From IMG/VR virus record IMGVR_UViG_2724679540_000005: a DNA stretch of 7,764 nucleotides; one strand, written 5' to 3'. A program made the position numbers and the translations under genes. Source of the stretch: a virus. Its lineage: Duplodnaviria; Heunggongvirae; Uroviricota; Caudoviricetes. The notes below the pieces were generated by a model that was not told the origin of the DNA, did no database searches, and saw only the letters and a program-made list of their open reading frames with translations. Shown here one piece after another: positions 1 through 7,764 of this stretch (positions are counted from its first letter, which is position 1; every line of letters begins with the position of its first letter).

Positions 1-506
1 CTCCTACAGCACCAAATCAGGTCTGGGTGGCGGACCTGACGTATGTTGCCACACAGGAGGGATGGTTGTACCTCGCTGGCATCAAAGATGTTTATACGTG
101 CGAAATTGTCGGCTACGCCATGGGAGAGCGCATGACAAAAGAGCTGACAGGTAAAGCCCTGTTTATGGCGCTCAGGAGCCAGCGCCCACCTGCCGGGCTA
201 ATCCACCACTCTGATCGAGGTTCACAGTACTGCGCATACGATTACCGGGTCATACAGGAGCAGTTTGGTCTGAAAACATCAATGTCGCGTAAAGGTAACT
301 GTTACGACAACGCTCCGATGGAAAGCTTCTGGGGAACGCTGAAAAATGAGAGCCTGAGCCACTATCGTTTTAATAACCGGGATGAAGCCATCTCAGTAAT
401 ACGGGAATACATTGAGATTTTCTACAATCGTCAGCGTCGTCACTCTCGTCTGGGGAATATCTCCCCGGCAGCCTTCAGGGAAAAATATCATCAGATGGCT
501 GCTTAA
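1..506 (+). CDS. IS3-family transposase OrfB (DDE integrase core), 5'-truncated by the window edge
   Basis: The ORF track's GTG at 27 is not the real start: the frame is open to the window edge and reads PTAPNQVWVADLTYV. Motifs ADLTYV, HHSDRGSQY and NAPMESFWGTLK match the D-D-E catalytic core of IS3-family OrfB. Stop is TAA at 504-506. Confidence 0.9.
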   Translation, partial: PTAPNQVWVADLTYVATQEGWLYLAGIKDVYTCEIVGYAMGERMTKELTGKALFMALRSQRPPAGLIHHSDRGSQYCAYDYRVIQEQFGLKTSMSRKGNCYDNAPMESFWGTLKNESLSHYRFNNRDEAISVIREYIEIFYNRQRRHSRLGNISPAAFREKYHQMAA

Positions 507-549
507 AAAAAGAACAAATGGTAGTGTCCGCTATTGCCAGTACACCTCA
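1..549 (+). mobile_element. IS3-family insertion sequence, partial copy (3' portion, cut by window edge), ending in the terminal ...CCTCA at 549
   Basis: Positions 1-549 are the exact reverse complement of 7216-7764 (checked at both termini and at the inner junction). The element ends with the 5'-TG...CA-3' termini typical of IS3-family inverted repeats. It encodes a DDE transposase fragment. Confidence 0.85.
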
Positions 550-795
550 CTGACATGCTAAAGCAAAAAATAGATGAATAAGTTGAGTTGTGCATATGTA
601 GCCTGACCGTCACAAAGTATATGGTGTCTGTACCAGTAAGATGATGGCCGGACTCTTTAAAAAAGAGCTGACCTGCACAATACAGGATGGACTTAGCAAT
701 GGCTGCTCCTGGCACAAAGCGGACAGTGATCACCGTTCTTACGACTACTTTCTGACTTCCTTCGTGACTTGCCCTAAGCATGTTGTAGTGCGATA

Positions 796-826
796 CTTGT
801 AATGACATTTGTAATTACAAGAGGTG
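796..826 (+). promoter_or_regulatory. relBE operator/promoter region (relO-like TTGTAAT repeats in a palindrome) plus relB ribosome-binding site
   Basis: CTTGTAATGACATTTGTAATTACAAG (796-821) has 8-bp inverted outer arms and two TTGTAAT direct repeats. GAGGTG at 821-826 sits 6 nt before the relB ATG at 833. This matches the autoregulated relBE operator architecture as recalled. Confidence 0.6.
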
Positions 827-832
827 TAAGAC

Positions 833-1072
833 ATGGGTAGCATTAACCTGCGTATTGACGATGAACTTAAAGCGCGTTCTTACGCCGCGCTTGAAAAAAT
901 GGGTGTAACTCCTTCTGAAGCGCTTCGTCTCATGCTCGAGTATATCGCTGACAATGAACGCTTGCCGTTCAAACAGACACTCCTGAGTGATGAAGATGCT
1001 GAACTTGTGGAGATAGTGAAAGAACGGCTTCGTAATCCTAAGCCAGTACGTGTGACGCTGGATGAACTCTGA
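833..1072 (+). CDS. relB: RelB antitoxin (RHH family), 79 aa
   Basis: Protein MGSINLRIDDELKARSYA...PKPVRVTLDEL is essentially E. coli RelB as recalled. Its TGA stop overlaps the relE ATG (TGATG), indicating translational coupling. Confidence 0.95.
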   Translation: MGSINLRIDDELKARSYAALEKMGVTPSEALRLMLEYIADNERLPFKQTLLSDEDAELVEIVKERLRNPKPVRVTLDEL

Positions 1073-1359
1073 TGGCGTATTTTCTGGATTTTGACGAGCG
1101 GGCACTAAAGGAATGGCGAAAGCTGGGCTCGACGGTACGTGAACAGTTGAAAAAGAAGCTGGTTGAAGTACTTGAGTCACCCCGGATTGAAGCAAACAAG
1201 CTCCGTGGTATGCCTGATTGTTACAAGATTAAGCTCCGGTCTTCAGGCTATCGCCTTGTATACCAGGTTATAGACGAGAAAGTTGTCGTTTTCGTGATTT
1301 CTGTTGGGAAAAGAGAACGCTCGGAAGTATATAGCGAGGCGGTCAAACGCATTCTCTGA
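1072..1359 (+). CDS. relE: RelE mRNA-interferase toxin, 95 aa
   Basis: Protein MAYFLDFDERALKEWRKLGSTVREQLKKKL...VISVGKRERSEVYSEAVKRIL matches E. coli RelE as recalled. It is coupled to relB. Confidence 0.95.
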   Translation: MAYFLDFDERALKEWRKLGSTVREQLKKKLVEVLESPRIEANKLRGMPDCYKIKLRSSGYRLVYQVIDEKVVVFVISVGKRERSEVYSEAVKRIL

Positions 1360-1430
1360 ACCAAAGCATGACATCTCTGTTTCGCACCGAAGGTGACACT
1401 TCTGCTTTGCGTTGACAGGAGAAGCAGGCT

Positions 1431-1586
1431 ATGAAGCAGCAAAAGGCGATGTTAATCGCCCTGATCGTCATCTGTTTAACCGTCATAGTGACGGCACTGG
1501 TAACGAGGAAAGACCTCTGCGAGGTACGAATCCGAACCGGCCAGACGGAGGTCGCTGTCTTCACAGCTTACGAACCTGAGGAGTAA
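1431..1586 (+). CDS. hokD: Hok-family small membrane toxin (HokD/RelF), 51 aa
   Basis: Hand-translated ORF MKQQKAMLIALIVICLTVIVTALVTRKDLCEVRIRTGQTEVAVFTAYEPEE, below the ORF-track length cutoff. It has the Hok signature (N-terminal TM helix, conserved C-terminal CEVRIRTGQTEVAVFTAYE) and sits downstream of relE as in the Qin prophage relBEF operon. Confidence 0.9.
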   Translation: MKQQKAMLIALIVICLTVIVTALVTRKDLCEVRIRTGQTEVAVFTAYEPEE

Positions 1587-1654
1587 GAGACCCGGCGAGT
1601 GAGAAATCCCTCGCCACCTCTGATGTGGCAGGCATCCTCAACGCACCCGCACTT

Positions 1655-1683
1655 AACCCGCTTCGGCGGGTTTTTGTTTTTAT
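1655..1683 (+). terminator. Rho-independent terminator closing the relBE-hokD operon
   Basis: GC stem AACCCGC-TTCG-GCGGGTT followed by TTTTTGTTTTTATTTT. Confidence 0.7.
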
Positions 1684-1803: not shown

Positions 1804-2054
1804 ATGATGAACATCGAAGAACTGCGTAAAATTTTTTGTGAAGATGGCCTCTATGCTGTGTGCGTTGAAAATGGAAATATTGTTAGTCATTACCGCATTG
1901 TGTGTTTGCAAAAAATGGGGCTGCGTTAATTAATTTTGTGGATGCCCGAGTGACGGACGGATTTATCTTGCGCGACGGTGAGTTTGTCACTTCATTACAG
2001 GCATTGAAAGAGACCGGAATAAAAGCTGGCTTTTCTGCTTTTTCAGAAGAATAA
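1804..2054 (+). pseudogene. rem: rem-like small prophage gene, split by an apparent 1-nt deletion in a homopolymeric A-tract
   Basis: ORF 1804-1929 (MMNIEELRKIFCEDGLYAVCVENGNIVSHYRIVCLQKMGLR*) ends prematurely. The 0-frame stays open from 1887 to TAA at 2052-2054 (...KNGAALINFVDARVTDGFILRDGEFVTSLQALKETGIKAGFSAFSEE). Adding one A to the A6 run at 1910-1915 restores a single 83-aa protein, the recalled length of Qin Rem. AGGA ribosome-binding site lies upstream of the ATG. Confidence 0.7.
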
Positions 2055-2400: not shown

Positions 2401-3450
2401 GTGCGGGTATTACTTCGACCTGTTCTGGTTCCGGAACTCGGGCTGGTGGTCCTTAAGCCCGGTCGTGAATCCATGCCGGTATTCCACAATACCCGGTTAC
2501 TGGTGGAGCCGGAACCGAAAAGCATGCGTAATCTGCCGTCCGGGGTCGTTCCTGCCGTTCGCCAGCCGCTGGTGGAAGACAAAACATTGCTGCCGTTTTT
2601 CAGTAACGCACAGGTGATTCGTGCTGCTGGTGGTGCTGGTGCATTGTCTGACTGGCTGTTGCGCCATATTAAATCCTGCCAGTGGCCACACGGCGATTAT
2701 CATCACAGCGAAACCGTCATTCACCGTTATGGTACCGGCGCAATGGTGTTGTGCTGGCACTGCGACAACCAGTTGCGTGACCAGACATCCGAATCACTCG
2801 AGCAACTTGCTCATCAAAACCTGTCAGCATGGATGATTGACGTCATCGGTCACGCAATAAGCGGTACGCAGGAGCGTGAATTATCTCTAGCTGAATTATC
2901 CTGGTGGGCGGTCCGCAATCAGGTGGCGGACGCGCTACCGGAAGCGGTATTACGTCGTTCGCTGGGGTTGCGTGCGGAAAAAATCCGCTCAATGTACCGT
3001 GAAAGCGACATCGTACCGGGAGAGCAGACCGCCACCAGCATACTGAAACAGCGCACAAAAAATCTTGCGCCGCTGCCTCACGCCCACCAGCAACAGAACC
3101 CACAACAGGAAAAGACGGTGGTCAGCATTGCCGTTGATCCTGAGTCTCCGGAATCTTTCATGAAACGACCTAAACGTCGCAGCTGGGTTAACGAGAAATA
3201 CAAACGCTGGGTGAAGACACAGCCGTGTGCGTGTTGTGGTAAGCCAGCCGACGATCCCCATCACCTGATTGGTCATGGTCAGGGCGGAATGGGGACAAAA
3301 TCTCACGATATTTTCACGCTACCGCTGTGTCGGGAGCATCACAACGAGCTTCATGCGGATCCTCTGGCGTTCGAAGAAAAGCATGGTTCTCAGGTTGATT
3401 TAATTTTTCGTTTTCTTGATCACGCCTTTGCAACTGGCGTGCTTGGGTAA
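2401..3450 (+). CDS. ydfU: YdfU-like prophage protein (DUF968 family), 349 aa, with a C-terminal Cys/His-rich HNH-like motif
   Basis: GTG start at 2401 preceded by a perfect GGAGG (2392-2396). Length equals recalled Qin YdfU. C-terminus reads CACCGKPADDPHHLIGHGQGG...CREHHNELH. Position between rem and rusA/Q fits Qin-like gene order. Confidence 0.75.
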   Translation: MRVLLRPVLVPELGLVVLKPGRESMPVFHNTRLLVEPEPKSMRNLPSGVVPAVRQPLVEDKTLLPFFSNAQVIRAAGGAGALSDWLLRHIKSCQWPHGDYHHSETVIHRYGTGAMVLCWHCDNQLRDQTSESLEQLAHQNLSAWMIDVIGHAISGTQERELSLAELSWWAVRNQVADALPEAVLRRSLGLRAEKIRSMYRESDIVPGEQTATSILKQRTKNLAPLPHAHQQQNPQQEKTVVSIAVDPESPESFMKRPKRRSWVNEKYKRWVKTQPCACCGKPADDPHHLIGHGQGGMGTKSHDIFTLPLCREHHNELHADPLAFEEKHGSQVDLIFRFLDHAFATGVLG

Positions 3451-3462
3451 AAGAGGTGACTG

Positions 3463-3819
3463 ATGCTCATAGATTTGGTTTTACCTTACCCGCCGACGGT
3501 GAACACTTACTGGCGACGCCGTGGCAGCACATATTTTATCTCGGAGGAGGGAAAGCGTTATCGCCGGGCTGTGGCGCTTATTGTTCGCCAGCAGCGGCTG
3601 AAATTAAGCCTGTCCGGAAGGCTGGCGATAAAGGTGATTGCAGAGCCACCGGATAAGCGTCGTCGCGACCTGGACAATATCCTGAAAGCACCGCTGGATG
3701 CGCTGACGCATGCGGGAGTGTTAATGGACGATGAGCAGTTTGATGAAATCAATATCGTTCGTGGTCAGCCAGTATCTGGTGGACGTCTGGGGGTGAAGAT
3801 TTACCCCATAATGCATTAA
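3463..3819 (+). CDS. rusA: RusA-family Holliday-junction resolvase, 118 aa
   Basis: Protein has PPTVNTYWRRRG and RRRDLDN motifs and a length typical of RusA. AAGAGGTGA ribosome-binding site upstream. It lies immediately upstream of Q, the canonical lambdoid position. Confidence 0.85.
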   Translation: MLIDLVLPYPPTVNTYWRRRGSTYFISEEGKRYRRAVALIVRQQRLKLSLSGRLAIKVIAEPPDKRRRDLDNILKAPLDALTHAGVLMDDEQFDEINIVRGQPVSGGRLGVKIYPIMH

Positions 3820-3833
3820 GAGCAGGTCAAAAA

Positions 3834-4655
3834 ATGAAACTGGAAGATTTACCGAAATACTACTCCCCAAAATCCCCTGGCCTGACCGATGCATCGGCCT
3901 CAACGTCAAAAGATGCGCTGAGTATCACTGATGTGATGGCCGCGCAGGGCATGACACAGAATCGGGCTGAGATGGGTTTTTCTGCGTTCCTGGGGAAAAT
4001 GGGCATCAGTATGAATGACAGGGCGCGGGCAACAGAATTACTGGCAGATTATGCACTCAGTCGGTGCGATCGTGTGGCGGCGTTGAGAAAACTTCCGGCA
4101 GAAATAAAACCGGTAGTGATGCGCATTATGGCTTCGTACGCTTTTGAGGATTATGCCCGCAGCGCAGCGAGTAAAAAGCAGTGCCCTTGTTGCTATGGGG
4201 AAAAATTTATTGAAAGCATAGTTTTTACAAACAAGATCCAGTATCCGGATGGTAAGCCGCCGGTATGGGCAAAGTGCACGAAAGGTGTGTATCCGTCTTA
4301 CTGGGAAGAATGGAAAAAAGTCAGGGAGGTGGTAAAAGTTGCCTGTCCGGAGTGTGGCGGAAAGGGTGAGGTTTCCACCGCCTGTAAGGATTGCCGTGGG
4401 CGTGGTGTCGCCATTCATCGTGAAGAGTCGGTAAAACGTGGTATGCCTGTTATCAGAGACTGCCAGCGTTGTGGTGGTCGTGGCTATGAAAGACTACCAT
4501 CAACGGAGGCATTTAATGCTATATGCGAGGTGACAAACCAGATAACACGCGCGTCATGGGAAAAAACAGTTAAGAAATTTTATGATGCGCTGGTGACCCG
4601 GTTTGATATTGAAGAAGCATGGGCTGAGCGGCAGTTAAAAAAGGTAACTAGGTAA
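3834..4655 (+). CDS. Late-gene antiterminator Q (Q21/Q82-like), 273 aa, with four DnaJ-type CxxCxGxG zinc-finger repeats
   Basis: N-terminus MKLEDLPKYYSPKSP...TDVMAAQGM resembles prophage Q proteins as recalled. Repeats CPCCYGEK, CPECGGKG, CKDCRGRG, CQRCGGRG. The gene is followed directly by a late promoter, a terminator, tRNAs and lysis genes. Confidence 0.8.
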   Translation: MKLEDLPKYYSPKSPGLTDASASTSKDALSITDVMAAQGMTQNRAEMGFSAFLGKMGISMNDRARATELLADYALSRCDRVAALRKLPAEIKPVVMRIMASYAFEDYARSAASKKQCPCCYGEKFIESIVFTNKIQYPDGKPPVWAKCTKGVYPSYWEEWKKVREVVKVACPECGGKGEVSTACKDCRGRGVAIHREESVKRGMPVIRDCQRCGGRGYERLPSTEAFNAICEVTNQITRASWEKTVKKFYDALVTRFDIEEAWAERQLKKVTR

Positions 4656-4798: not shown

Positions 4799-4874
4799 GG
4801 CCCTTTAGCTCAGTGGTGAGAGCGAGCGACTCATAATCGCCAGGTCGCTGGTTCAAATCCAGCAAGGGCCACCA
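4799..4874 (+). tRNA. tRNA with CAU anticodon, ileX/ileZ-like (tRNA-Ile2, lysidine-dependent; automated tools would likely call tRNA-Met)
   Basis: 76 nt, GGCCCTT/AAGGGCC acceptor stem, anticodon loop CTCATAA, T-loop GGTTCAAATCC, 3' CCA encoded. Close to E. coli ileX as recalled. Confidence 0.9.
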
Positions 4875-4975
4875 TCACAAACCGCCATTAGCTTATCAGG
4901 AAGAGCAGACGACACGATAACAGGGTTGTTGGTGCGGGGGGCGGGTCCCCGATGGCGGTCCATTATCGGTATTCA

Positions 4976-5052
4976 GCGTTGTTAGCTCAGCCGGACAGAG
5001 CAATTGCCTTCTAAGCAATCGGTCACTGGTTCGAATCCAGTACAGCGCGCCA
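4976..5052 (+). tRNA. tRNA-Arg (anticodon UCU, argU/argN-like; reads rare AGA/AGG codons)
   Basis: 77 nt, acceptor GCGTTGT/ACAGCGC (one G-U pair), anticodon stem ATTGC/GCAAT with loop CTTCTAA, T-arm ACTGG-TTCGAAT-CCAGT, 3' GCCA. Confidence 0.9.
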
Positions 5053-5162: not shown

Positions 5163-5516
5163 TTGATTGAGTATTTGTTATACGGTCTAATGGTTTTTTC
5201 AGCATTAAGTATTTATCATTCATATGGTGTGGGTAGAGTGAATATTGATGAGGCGTCGGGGTGTTTCATCCTTAGGCAGCGTATTGATATAGTCAATGCA
5301 GCACGAGCAAAGGCCTTCAGCCGTTTGACAGTTTTGTTCTGTACTCCTGATCGTCTTTCGGGAAGAGACGTTATTATTCTGAATAGTGATGCTATACAGA
5401 GGGTTTGCGATGAGTTCATGGTTGCTAATTCAGAATTATTTGCTCTTGTTCAGGAGTACAACAGAATAGCCAGGACCTGTGGTATGGATGAACTTCGGAT
5501 TACTCATCTGGGGTAG
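5163..5516 (+). CDS. Hypothetical protein, low-GC orphan ORF (117 aa from TTG at 5163; 108 aa if ATG 5190 is used)
   Basis: Open frame of 354 nt in an AT-rich segment. No convincing ribosome-binding site. No recognisable family. Could be a gene fragment. Confidence 0.35.
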   Translation: MIEYLLYGLMVFSALSIYHSYGVGRVNIDEASGCFILRQRIDIVNAARAKAFSRLTVLFCTPDRLSGRDVIILNSDAIQRVCDEFMVANSELFALVQEYNRIARTCGMDELRITHLG

Positions 5517-5839
5517 ATACATATCTGGATTATCACCTGTTACGGTAAAAAGTGATTGCTTACTGTTTTTGTGAATGGCATTGCAGCAGCCGGATAATGT
5601 CAGTGCCGGCTGACGGTGTGCTGGTGGCGGGTGTGGTGGTTGTTGCTTTCCCGTTGCTGAAAAAGAAAACGCCAGACTGTTAGCCGGGTATCAGTTAGCG
5701 GGAGAAATTTTTAAATACTTCACAATTCAGGCGGTTGACTGTTGTCTGGTTTGCGGGGAGTTTGTTAAAAGAAACTGGCATGGTGAATCCCCCTGTGCGG
5801 AGGGGCAATCAGCGAGTAGGTATATGGGATAATCGCGGA

Positions 5840-5944
5840 TTCAGGTGCTGGTACTGAATTCACCGGGAGGCACCCGGCACCATGCAATGGCACATAGCGC
5901 CACTCTCCAGCCCCTCTCCGGAGGGGCTGTTTATATTGATTTTG
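5840..5944 (+). ncRNA. Candidate small RNA: three consecutive hairpins ending in an intrinsic terminator
   Basis: Possible -10 GATAAT at 5828-5833. Hairpins ATTCAG/CTGAAT (5839-5859) and CCGGG/CCCGG (5863-5877). Terminator stem CAGCCCCTC-TCCG-GAGGGGCTG (5908-5929) followed by TTTATATTGATTTT. No ORF of 60 aa or more covers this region on either strand. Confidence 0.3.
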
Positions 5945-5963
5945 TCAGATGTGAGTAAACTCC

Positions 5964-6299
5964 TTATGGACTTTGTTGTTTTAGTCCATAAGGACATATT
6001 TGCAGAGTGCAACGGTTATTAAAGCATTCATTCAATACGTTATCTGTATTTGTAGGGCATTCCTGGCTGTTTTTGATTAAATTCCAGAATGTTTTATTGA
6101 ATGGTACTACGTTGTAAATGGTTACAGGTAGCACTTTGTTATTGAGCATGATGCCTGTGTGAGTCAGTGTAAATATACTTTCAGGAGGTAAGAAAGCATC
6201 CGATTGATACCAGATTATTAATTTTATTTTACTCCATATGACTGAAAAAGATATTCCGCATGATGGCTGGATAACTGTATCAATCACAATCCACTTCAT
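5964..6299 (-). CDS. Hypothetical protein, low-GC orphan ORF, 111 aa, Cys/Asn/Ile-rich
   Basis: ATG preceded by AAGGAAA ribosome-binding site (reverse complement of 6304-6311) with about 5-nt spacing. AT-rich promoter-like region upstream (6300-6540). No recognisable family. The last 10 codons lie inside a perfect 11-bp inverted repeat. Confidence 0.4.
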
Positions 6300-6558
6300 T
6301 TAGTTTCCTTGTTTATGCCTTGCTGGTGATGTTCTGAAAAGTATAAATGATATTTTTGAATTAAACCATAGAGCAGAATTATTTTTCTGATGTTGTTTAT
6401 TGTTTATTTAAATGCAGGGTGGTTTATATCTCGTCTTGTAGTTTATCCATGCATATCTGCTTGATAATCAGGTTTTTATTTAAGGTATGGTTTTGTGTTT
6501 TTTCTGTATTACATGTCAGGTATTTTAAAGAATTATTTTTCAGATGGTGGAAAGAACC

Positions 6559-6747
6559 ATGGCATTTAAACACTATGATGTTGTCAGGGCGGCGCCGCCG
6601 TCAGATCTTGCGGAAAAGCTGACACATAAACTGAAAGAGGGCTGGCAGCCGTTTGGTAGTCCGGTGGCCATAACCCCTTATACCCTGATGCAGGCGATTG
6701 CAGCAGAAGGTGATGTGGTGGTCAGTGGTGCAACTGAGCCGGAGTGA
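6559..6747 (+). CDS. Small phage protein resembling the DUF1737 family (62 aa from ATG 6559)
   Basis: GGTGGAAAG ribosome-binding site 5 nt before ATG 6559; the track's ATG 6544 has none. Sequence MAFKHYDVVRAAPPSDLAEKLTHKLKEGWQPFGSPVAI...LMQAI fits the recalled DUF1737 pattern. Such genes commonly sit next to lambdoid lysis genes. Confidence 0.5.
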   Translation: MAFKHYDVVRAAPPSDLAEKLTHKLKEGWQPFGSPVAITPYTLMQAIAAEGDVVVSGATEPE

Positions 6748-6989
6748 TACTACGTCATCGTACTGGCCCGGCATTCCAGGCCATAAAAGACAGTCTGGCA
6801 GTGGGACTAAATGCACTGACGCTGACGGATATTACCAAAAATGCAACGTATGGCGTTGAGATAGAAAGTCTGGTGCTGGAGATAAATGCACCGGCATCAT
6901 CATAAAAAGTGAGCCAGTCAAATGGAAGGTATCGTTAAACTCACCGGTAGTGTCAGTGGGTCGTCTGAGACGCTTGCATGAGTTATCAG

Positions 6990-7023
6990 AGCCATCAGTA
7001 GTTAACTGGTGGCTTTTTTATTG
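6990..7023 (+). terminator. Rho-independent terminator just upstream of the holin gene
   Basis: Stem AGCCATCAG / CTGGTGGCT (9 bp, one G-U pair), loop TAGTTAA, followed by TTTTTTATTGTTG. Confidence 0.55.
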
Positions 7024-7054
7024 TTGTCAGCTTCCGGATAACGGGAGACGGGGT

Positions 7055-7234
7055 ATGGACCAGATGGAAAAAATCACAACAGGTGTGTCATACACCACGT
7101 CAGCGGTGGGAACGGGCTACTGGTTCCTGCAGTTGCTGGACAGGTTTTCCCCGTCTCAGTGGGCGGCAATAGGCGTGCTGGGGAGTCTGCTGTTTGGGCT
7201 GCTGACATATCTGACTGAGGTGTACTGGCAATAG
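7055..7234 (+). pseudogene. S21-type holin/pinholin (EssD/EssQ family), truncated after about 53 codons by the IS insertion at 7215/7216
   Basis: GGGAGACGGGG ribosome-binding site then ATG 7055. [53 protein letters not shown] matches phage 21 S / EssQ as recalled, including a Met1/Met4 dual-start arrangement. The frame runs into IS sequence and stops at 7232-7234 (TEVYWQ*), so the cytoplasmic C-terminal tail is missing. Confidence 0.75.
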
Positions 7235-7764
7235 CGGACACTACCATTTGTTCTTTTTTTAAGCAGCCATCTGATGATATTTTTCCCTGAAGGCTGCCGG
7301 GGAGATATTCCCCAGACGAGAGTGACGACGCTGACGATTGTAGAAAATCTCAATGTATTCCCGTATTACTGAGATGGCTTCATCCCGGTTATTAAAACGA
7401 TAGTGGCTCAGGCTCTCATTTTTCAGCGTTCCCCAGAAGCTTTCCATCGGAGCGTTGTCGTAACAGTTACCTTTACGCGACATTGATGTTTTCAGACCAA
7501 ACTGCTCCTGTATGACCCGGTAATCGTATGCGCAGTACTGTGAACCTCGATCAGAGTGGTGGATTAGCCCGGCAGGTGGGCGCTGGCTCCTGAGCGCCAT
7601 AAACAGGGCTTTACCTGTCAGCTCTTTTGTCATGCGCTCTCCCATGGCGTAGCCGACAATTTCGCACGTATAAACATCTTTGATGCCAGCGAGGTACAAC
7701 CATCCCTCCTGTGTGGCAACATACGTCAGGTCCGCCACCCAGACCTGATTTGGTGCTGTAGGAG
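7216..7764 (-). mobile_element. IS3-family insertion sequence, second partial copy, inverted relative to the copy at 1-549
   Basis: Exact reverse complement of 1-549. The terminus TGAGGTG... begins at 7216 and interrupts the holin ORF. Confidence 0.85.
7259..7764 (-). CDS. IS3-family transposase OrfB (DDE core), 5'-truncated by the window edge
   Basis: Translation identical to the left-end copy (159-aa track ORF). Frame is open to the window edge. Confidence 0.9.
   Translation of the reverse strand, partial: PTAPNQVWVADLTYVATQEGWLYLAGIKDVYTCEIVGYAMGERMTKELTGKALFMALRSQRPPAGLIHHSDRGSQYCAYDYRVIQEQFGLKTSMSRKGNCYDNAPMESFWGTLKNESLSHYRFNNRDEAISVIREYIEIFYNRQRRHSRLGNISPAAFREKYHQMAA

Follow-up and report, generated by a model that had tools for sequence, protein, structure and literature searches.

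A phage-21-type pinholin gene fragment ended by IS600 in a Qin-like prophage remnant of Shigella flexneri

Results

Prophage genes between two inverted IS600 copies

We analysed a stretch of 7,764 nucleotides, hereafter the window, from IMG/VR virus record IMGVR_UViG_2724679540_000005. It begins and ends inside copies of IS600, and the 6.67-kb island between them, truncated at both ends, has as its last gene the short holin open reading frame (ORF) that is the subject of this work. The features are:

1-549, plus strand: left IS600 copy, inverted relative to the right copy, IRR end at 549 (549-bp inverted repeat)
27-506, plus strand: ORF with an rve integrase core in the left IS600
503-808, minus strand: ydfV', identical to K-12 YdfV to residue 87, then 14 IS600-encoded codons (sequence comparison; junction 549/550)
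833-1072, plus strand: relB, protein identical to K-12
1072-1359, plus strand: relE, protein identical to K-12
1431-1586, plus strand: hokD, protein identical to K-12
1804-2054, plus strand: rem, frameshifted relative to K-12 Rem of 83 aa (sequence comparison)
Between rem and ydfU in the island listing: 92-aa ORF
2401-3450, plus strand: ydfU-like DUF968 gene (Pfam)
3463-3819, plus strand: RusA gene (Pfam)
3834-4655, plus strand: Q antiterminator gene, 273 aa (Pfam)
4799-5052, plus strand: two tRNA genes, one with a CAU anticodon and tRNA-Arg (UCU) (ARAGORN; annotation of E. coli CP062853.1)
5163-6905: moron region with a 117-aa ORF, a DUF3927 ORF, an IraM-like gene, DUF1737 and a 53-aa ORF
5964-6299, minus strand: IraM-like anti-adapter gene (NCBIfam NF007393, E=5e-48; also matches the PmrD Pfam family)
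6544-6747: DUF1737
6988-7016, plus strand: terminator-like hairpin directly 5' of the holin gene (consensus scan only)
7043-7047, plus strand: Shine-Dalgarno-like GGGAG, 7 nt 5' of the ATG at 7055 (read from the sequence)
7055-7234, plus strand: holin-fragment ORF of 59 codons, ATG at 7055, TAG at 7232-7234
7055-7216, plus strand: first 54 of the 71 codons of a pinholin gene (class II, phage 21 type, essQ/S21 family; PF04971 and DNA identity)
7217-7234, plus strand: IS600-derived tail EVYWQ and TAG, in frame with the holin fragment (translation; inside the IS600 IRR)
7216-7764, minus strand: right IS600 copy, 549 bp from the IRR end, running past the window end (99-100% identity to annotated IS600)
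7259-7738, minus strand: 3' part of orfB in the right IS600 (rve domain)

The island is what is left of a cryptic, Qin-like lambdoid prophage of Shigella flexneri. It shares the order ydfV-relB-relE-hokD-rem-ydfU-Q-holin with Qin of E. coli K-12 (locus L013 in our comparison), with ~93% DNA identity from ydfV to ydfU; the homology begins at position 548, at the left IS600 junction. RelB, RelE and HokD are identical in the two, and the holins belong to one family, TMD2 and the tail being almost identical and the intact relative ~79% identical overall. The island differs from Qin in that its RusA gene, 273-aa Q gene, tRNAs and IraM-like gene replace the cspF/cspB region, and in that its left end is cut in ydfV by the second IS600. 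The right ends differ as well: K-12 has a full 71-aa holin followed by ydfR, rrrQ and rzpQ, whereas the island holin stops at codon 54 and the lysis genes have gone from its vicinity. ORF and Pfam analysis revealed no integrase, repressor, replication, packaging, head or tail genes between the IS600 copies, and endolysin and Rz/Rz1 genes are absent from the window. What is kept in the island, as an earlier note on this DNA had pointed out, are relBE-hokD, the two tRNAs and the moron genes.

The truncation of ydfV is hidden, because the fused ORF has 101 aa, by coincidence the length of intact YdfV. The frameshift in rem puts the residues after the N-terminal ~36 into a different frame. ARAGORN calls the tRNA at 4799-4874 a tRNA-Met (CAU); its homologue in E. 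coli relatives is annotated as tRNA-Ile, which makes a lysidine-modified Ile2-type phage tRNA its probable identity. The CAU tRNA and tRNA-Arg (UCU) form a pair downstream of Q, like that in Stx-phage moron regions, and the IraM-like moron gene sits between Q and the holin gene on the opposite strand.

The holin gene is cut after codon 54

The holin ORF matches PF04971 (Phage_holin_2_1, 'Bacteriophage P21 holin S') at E=2.1e-23 and 82.5 bits, where the gathering cut-off is 26 bits, over profile positions 1-54 of 64. In addition, the S genes of Stx-converting and lambdoid phages are ~90% identical over its 59 aa (tblastn). The S21-type identity proposed for the gene in the earlier note is thus borne out. 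Intact E. coli holins of this type have 71 aa and in E. coli CP062853.1 (L001) are followed by ydfR, the lysozyme gene rrrQ and an Rz-type lysis gene; up to position 7216 the DNA of the fragment is 99.7% identical to such intact 71-codon genes. In a megablast of positions 6900-7300 against 5,426 complete E. coli genomes, more than 3,400 shared the holin region and all alignments ended at query position 317 (window position 7216), the holin/IS600 junction being spanned by none of these RefSeq complete genomes.

Position 7216 is therefore where holin homology ends and IS600 begins, the very terminus at which the gene had previously been described as cut; its T serves both as the last base of holin codon 54 (ACT) and as the first of the IS terminus TGAGG. 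The earlier count of about 53 retained residues needs a small correction, to 54 (residue 51 in S21-68 numbering), and the frame continues into the IS for five sense codons and a stop, not for six codons before it. Missing from the truncated ORF is the 3' remainder of the intact gene, AACCTGTATTTCAAAAT....

The fragment carries both starts (Met1 and Met4), TMD1 and most of TMD2, and its translation signals (the Shine-Dalgarno-like GGGAG and both start codons) are intact. The dual-start motif is present, the product beginning with MDQM; its extension, MDQ, brings no extra basic residue, likewise in the intact relatives, whereas K-12 essQ has MKS. The terminator-like hairpin upstream is found in intact relatives too, in a region 99.7% conserved in E. 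coli. Hydropathy suggests that TMD1 and the hydrophobic core of TMD2 (W36-L53) are retained, while the last turn or interface of TMD2 changes from NLYF to EVYW. The cut thus falls at the cytoplasmic end of TMD2, ahead of the interfacial NLYF-K. It is near the end of the second transmembrane helix, as had been noted, but it is not clearly past it, the limits of TMD2 being taken from hydropathy and a FuN-screen preprint (bioRxiv 10.1101/2021.04.20.440580). The whole basic C-terminal cytoplasmic domain, with its K56 membrane anchor, is absent from the 59-aa product: 17 residues, six of them basic and three acidic, have been replaced by EVYWQ, with none basic and one acidic, which changes the net charge of the tail from +3 to -1.

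The 59-aa protein is identical to RefSeq WP_040234639.1, 'class II holin family protein [Shigella flexneri]', an entry that PGAP labels as an ordinary holin with no truncation flag. The sole difference between the window and intact E. coli relatives from 6900 to 7216 is a G-to-T change at 7145, which produces V31F in the loop between TMD1 and TMD2; locus L002 (see below), with the same truncation, keeps V at residue 31.

The junction is inherited in Shigella genomes

IS copies are classic sites of misassembly, and the window ends inside an IS on both sides, so that the junction might be taken for an assembly or chimera artefact at a repeated IS. However, two closed genomes encode the truncated holin, as do draft assemblies and many independent Logan read sets after assembly, and the identical junction is also present in a third closed genome, of a different lineage (L002), and in two IMG/VR contigs. 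This recurrence across independent genomes and assemblies indicates that the junction is inherited within the lineage, and we give the artefact practically no credence.

Two relatives match the whole window at 99.95-99.96%. These are CP054892.1 (L003) and CP026098.1 (L004), the complete genomes of the S. flexneri 3a strains FDAARGOS_713 and FDAARGOS_74, respectively (PMC9455713). The same holin/IS600 junction, at 99.66% identity, is found in CP178302.1 (L002; 'E. coli' ECMA0423), which carries ipaH, sigA, pic and the O13 antigen (PMC12488370) and is therefore either enteroinvasive E. coli (EIEC) or S. flexneri-like.

Both IS600 copies lack a target-site duplication

The right-hand sequence, 7216-7764, is 99-100% identical to copies annotated as 'IS3-like element IS600 family transposase', and it forms with 1-549 an inverted repeat of 549 bp with 99.6-100% identity; the IRR ends of both copies face inward, into the 6.67-kb segment. 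Full copies in the near-identical L003 have termini TGAGGT...ACCTCA and run from TGAGGTAGCC... (IRL) to ...GTACACCTCA (IRR). The sequence, the TG...CA termini, the full length of 1264 bp and the DDE (rve) transposase all support the identification as IS600, of the IS3 family. A longer IS600 terminus was considered and rejected, the left copy having a different flank from 550 onward. Several of the top plasmid IS600 matches do run 3-7 nt past the IS end, because ranking by coverage favours chance extensions.

In the simplest account of the locus, IS600 inserted into an otherwise complete lysis cassette, leaving the rest of S and R/Rz just past the right IS, and thereby made the prophage cryptic. 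The clean IS terminus inside the coding sequence is what such an insertion would produce, and an insertion was likely the first step. However, no 3-bp target-site duplication is present at either IS600 copy (in L003 the flanks are ATT and CTG on the two sides of the left copy, GAC and CTT on those of the right), and these flanks fit neither a direct 3-bp duplication nor the pairing left by a single inversion. The left side of the island is, moreover, cut too.

Two other readings of the flanks were rejected. The copies do not bound a composite transposon: the outer flanks, ATT and CTT, differ, and there is no sign that the unit transposed. The CTGAC at both inner IS ends is not a duplication either, since it belongs to ydfV and to the holin gene themselves, and its orientation with respect to the IS end is opposite in the two. 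The outer flanks in L003 (2211-2231 and 11427-11450) have a gapped similarity of ~21 nt, TGCTACCGGTCGTTGGAAATT versus TGCTACCCGGTTGCTTAGAATAAG, where one flank belongs to ydeS and the other to the beginning of a ydaU-family gene; the resemblance may be accidental or may reflect a target preference of IS600.

What lies beyond the IS600 copies in the relatives

Since the window ends inside the right IS600, the DNA right of 7764 in the source genome is taken from the 99.95%-identical relatives. To the right of the right IS600, L003 and L004 have the ydaU-family replication gene of another lambdoid prophage, present from nt ~14 and interrupted by IS2, and then genes for a ydaV-like ATPase, DUF977, DUF4014, DUF551, a hok homologue, DUF1367, YbcO and a DUF1133/Q-like (nin-like) protein. 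The left IS600 adjoins ydeS'/ydeR, inverted, with a ydeS breakpoint at L013 position 7932. L002 has an IS1 that breaks the holin-side IS600 after ~930 bp (L002 3657-4425) and whose far end joins ydeQ at L013 position 9030, from where ydeP and safA follow collinearly with K-12. In K-12 coordinates this arrangement amounts to ~52 kb missing, from essQ codon 55 to the yde fimbrial genes, and by its sequence the IS600-IS1-ydeQ joint bears the signature of an IS1 adjacent deletion.

The earlier note had the IS separating S from downstream endolysin genes and looked to the region past the right IS copy for the holin remainder and R/Rz. In the relatives nothing of the kind is seen there. When the holin remainder, YdfR, RrrQ and Rz of L001 were used as queries (blastn and tblastn), no match was obtained in the loci of L002, L003 and L004, and in the two 3a genomes the 10 kb to each side contain neither the holin 3' end nor ydfR, rrrQ or Rz. 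The reciprocal junction, of the IS600 IRL end with the holin 3' remainder, was not found in IMG/VR or JGI metagenome contigs, a weak negative as Shigella chromosomes are scarce there. The lack of a target-site duplication, together with the DNA seen beyond the junctions in the relatives, shows that IS600 here is a boundary of recombination or deletion and not of simple insertion; both copies are recombinant junctions. As a full explanation, the simple insertion into a complete cassette is very improbable.

To the left of the left IS600 in the 3a strains, a 516-bp ydeR/ydeS unit is repeated in tandem, three times in FDAARGOS_713 (L003 441-2231) and twice in FDAARGOS_74 (L004 957-2231); the unit exceeds the TRF period limit of 500 and was confirmed by a separate repeat search. 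In addition, a second hok locus (L003 17699-17961), 97% identical in DNA to the hokD region (window 1417-1678), lies ~7.5 kb past the right IS600 in the neighbouring prophage segment.

The 59-residue product is predicted to be inactive

The island product resembles the pinholin S21-68 and antiholin S21-71 of phage 21 and S of Stx phages in its PF04971 match, its length class (71/68 aa in the intact form), the YWFLQ and SPSQW motifs and a GxxxSxxxG-type TMD2. S21-68 numbering transfers directly, as the proteins are of equal length, K3, I4 and K56 occupy the same positions, and the YWFLQ- and LD--SPSQ motifs match. Unlike phage 21 S, the island product is without residues 52-68 of this numbering, including K56 and the cationic tail, and its gene is not beside a SAR endolysin gene.

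A FuN screen of S21-68, which concerns the phage 21 protein and not the Shigella allele, has found the C-terminus to be dispensable for pore formation down to K56, a residue that anchors the helix at the cytoplasmic face and for which only Arg substitutes; His or Glu at this position much reduces function, and hydrophobic residues leave very limited function (bioRxiv 10.1101/2021.04.20.440580). The engineered S21-56 of that study is, like the Shigella product, a C-terminal truncation of a protein of this family that ends at residue 56. It works, however, having kept N52-L53-Y54-F55-K56, whereas the Shigella product, equivalent to S21-56 with N52E, L53V, F55W and K56Q, reads E-V-Y-W-Q there: the Lys anchor has become Gln and no basic residue follows TMD2. 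Because the K56 anchor and the cationic tail are lost (six basic residues reduced to none), we infer that the product is inactive or a poor pore former, which on this comparison is the probable outcome, and the earlier note's view of the lysis cassette as likely disabled agrees with this. Since no endolysin or spanin gene lies downstream, the holin fragment cannot in any case cause lysis.

The truncated peptide might nevertheless be active, its TMD1 and TMD2 acting as a Q-dependent depolarising toxin or pinholin-like peptide selected beside relBE and hokD. The intact translation signals and TMD cores would allow this, S21 TMD2 alone makes transient pores (bioRxiv 10.1101/2021.04.20.440580), so that some membrane activity may persist, the S21 C-terminus is largely dispensable as far as K56, and the allele is common to divergent S. 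flexneri lineages. However, the truncation goes five residues past the tolerated limit, taking K56 with it, and a non-basic residue at 56, as well as a tail charge of -1 instead of +3, speaks for impaired function; the sharing among lineages is explained by common descent. The variants seen among truncated alleles are, furthermore, two nonsynonymous changes, V31F in the window and A37V, in TMD2, in P0002, with no synonymous one, a pattern that weakly fits relaxed constraint. On balance, we regard an active peptide as unlikely. Its more specific form, in which the 59-aa fragment would have been kept in S. flexneri as a small Q-dependent toxin dissipating the PMF beside relBE/hokD, with the IS600-made C-terminus altering its triggering, has very little to recommend it.

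Discussion

The above results make it highly probable that the ORF is a pseudogene fragment, namely the first 54 of 71 codons of a phage-21/essQ-type pinholin gene, ended by the IRR of IS600 in a Qin-like S. flexneri prophage. From the arrangement of the relatives we infer the following history. IS600 would have inserted after holin codon 54 in an S. flexneri ancestor, and IS600 insertions in ydfV and ydeS may likewise have taken place. Later recombination between IS copies, or adjacent deletion (involving IS600 and IS1), would have deleted the holin 3' end and ydfR-rrrQ-Rz or moved them elsewhere, possibly to a site beside another IS600, and would explain why no target-site duplication is left. 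In L002, an additional IS1 adjacent deletion would have followed. The island of the 3a lineage, for its part, seems to have flipped between the inverted IS600 copies, so that it is inverted relative to the yde region. The outcome would be the island seen now, ydfV'-relBE-hokD-rem'-ydfU-rusA-Q-tRNAs-morons-holin', bracketed by inverted IS600. Several orders of rearrangement fit, because the yde breakpoints of the relatives differ (ydeS 7932 in L003 and L004, ydeQ 9030 in L002).

It had been proposed that loss of the holin blocks lysis and so locks the prophage as a cryptic element. This view does not hold for a 6.67-kb fragment that has neither integrase nor repressor, replication or morphogenesis genes, and the same deficiency argues against a simple insertion as the event that made it cryptic. 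Qin of K-12 makes the point independently: it is cryptic, with partial integrase, exonuclease and tail genes, yet its essQ-ydfR-rrrQ-rzpQ genes are intact. As K-12 Qin is cryptic despite an intact lysis cassette, loss of the holin cannot be taken as the established cause of crypticity in the island. The remnant had already decayed and carries several lesions, of which the truncation of the holin gene is one, a symptom of decay rather than its cause.

IS600 is one of five IS types (IS1, IS2, IS4, IS600 and IS911) that have expanded in all Shigella and drive pseudogenisation; insertions, along with deletions and inversions between copies, have inactivated hundreds of genes, and many of the insertions are common to S. 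flexneri lineages through their ancestor (Hawkey et al. 2020, PMC7373316). The truncation described here is of the same kind, one more instance, in a prophage gene. Such IS-mediated pseudogenisation is routine in Shigella; events of this kind are known, and the present one already stands, unflagged, in public annotation. The finding has little import beyond annotation, and raises no outstanding question of phage lysis or of Shigella evolution. For annotation, however, WP_040234639.1 is the product of an IS600-truncated pseudogene and the RefSeq entry should be flagged as such. The locus also provides a worked example of how inverted IS600 copies and IS1 carve a Qin-like S. flexneri prophage down to an island of toxin-antitoxin, tRNA and moron genes.
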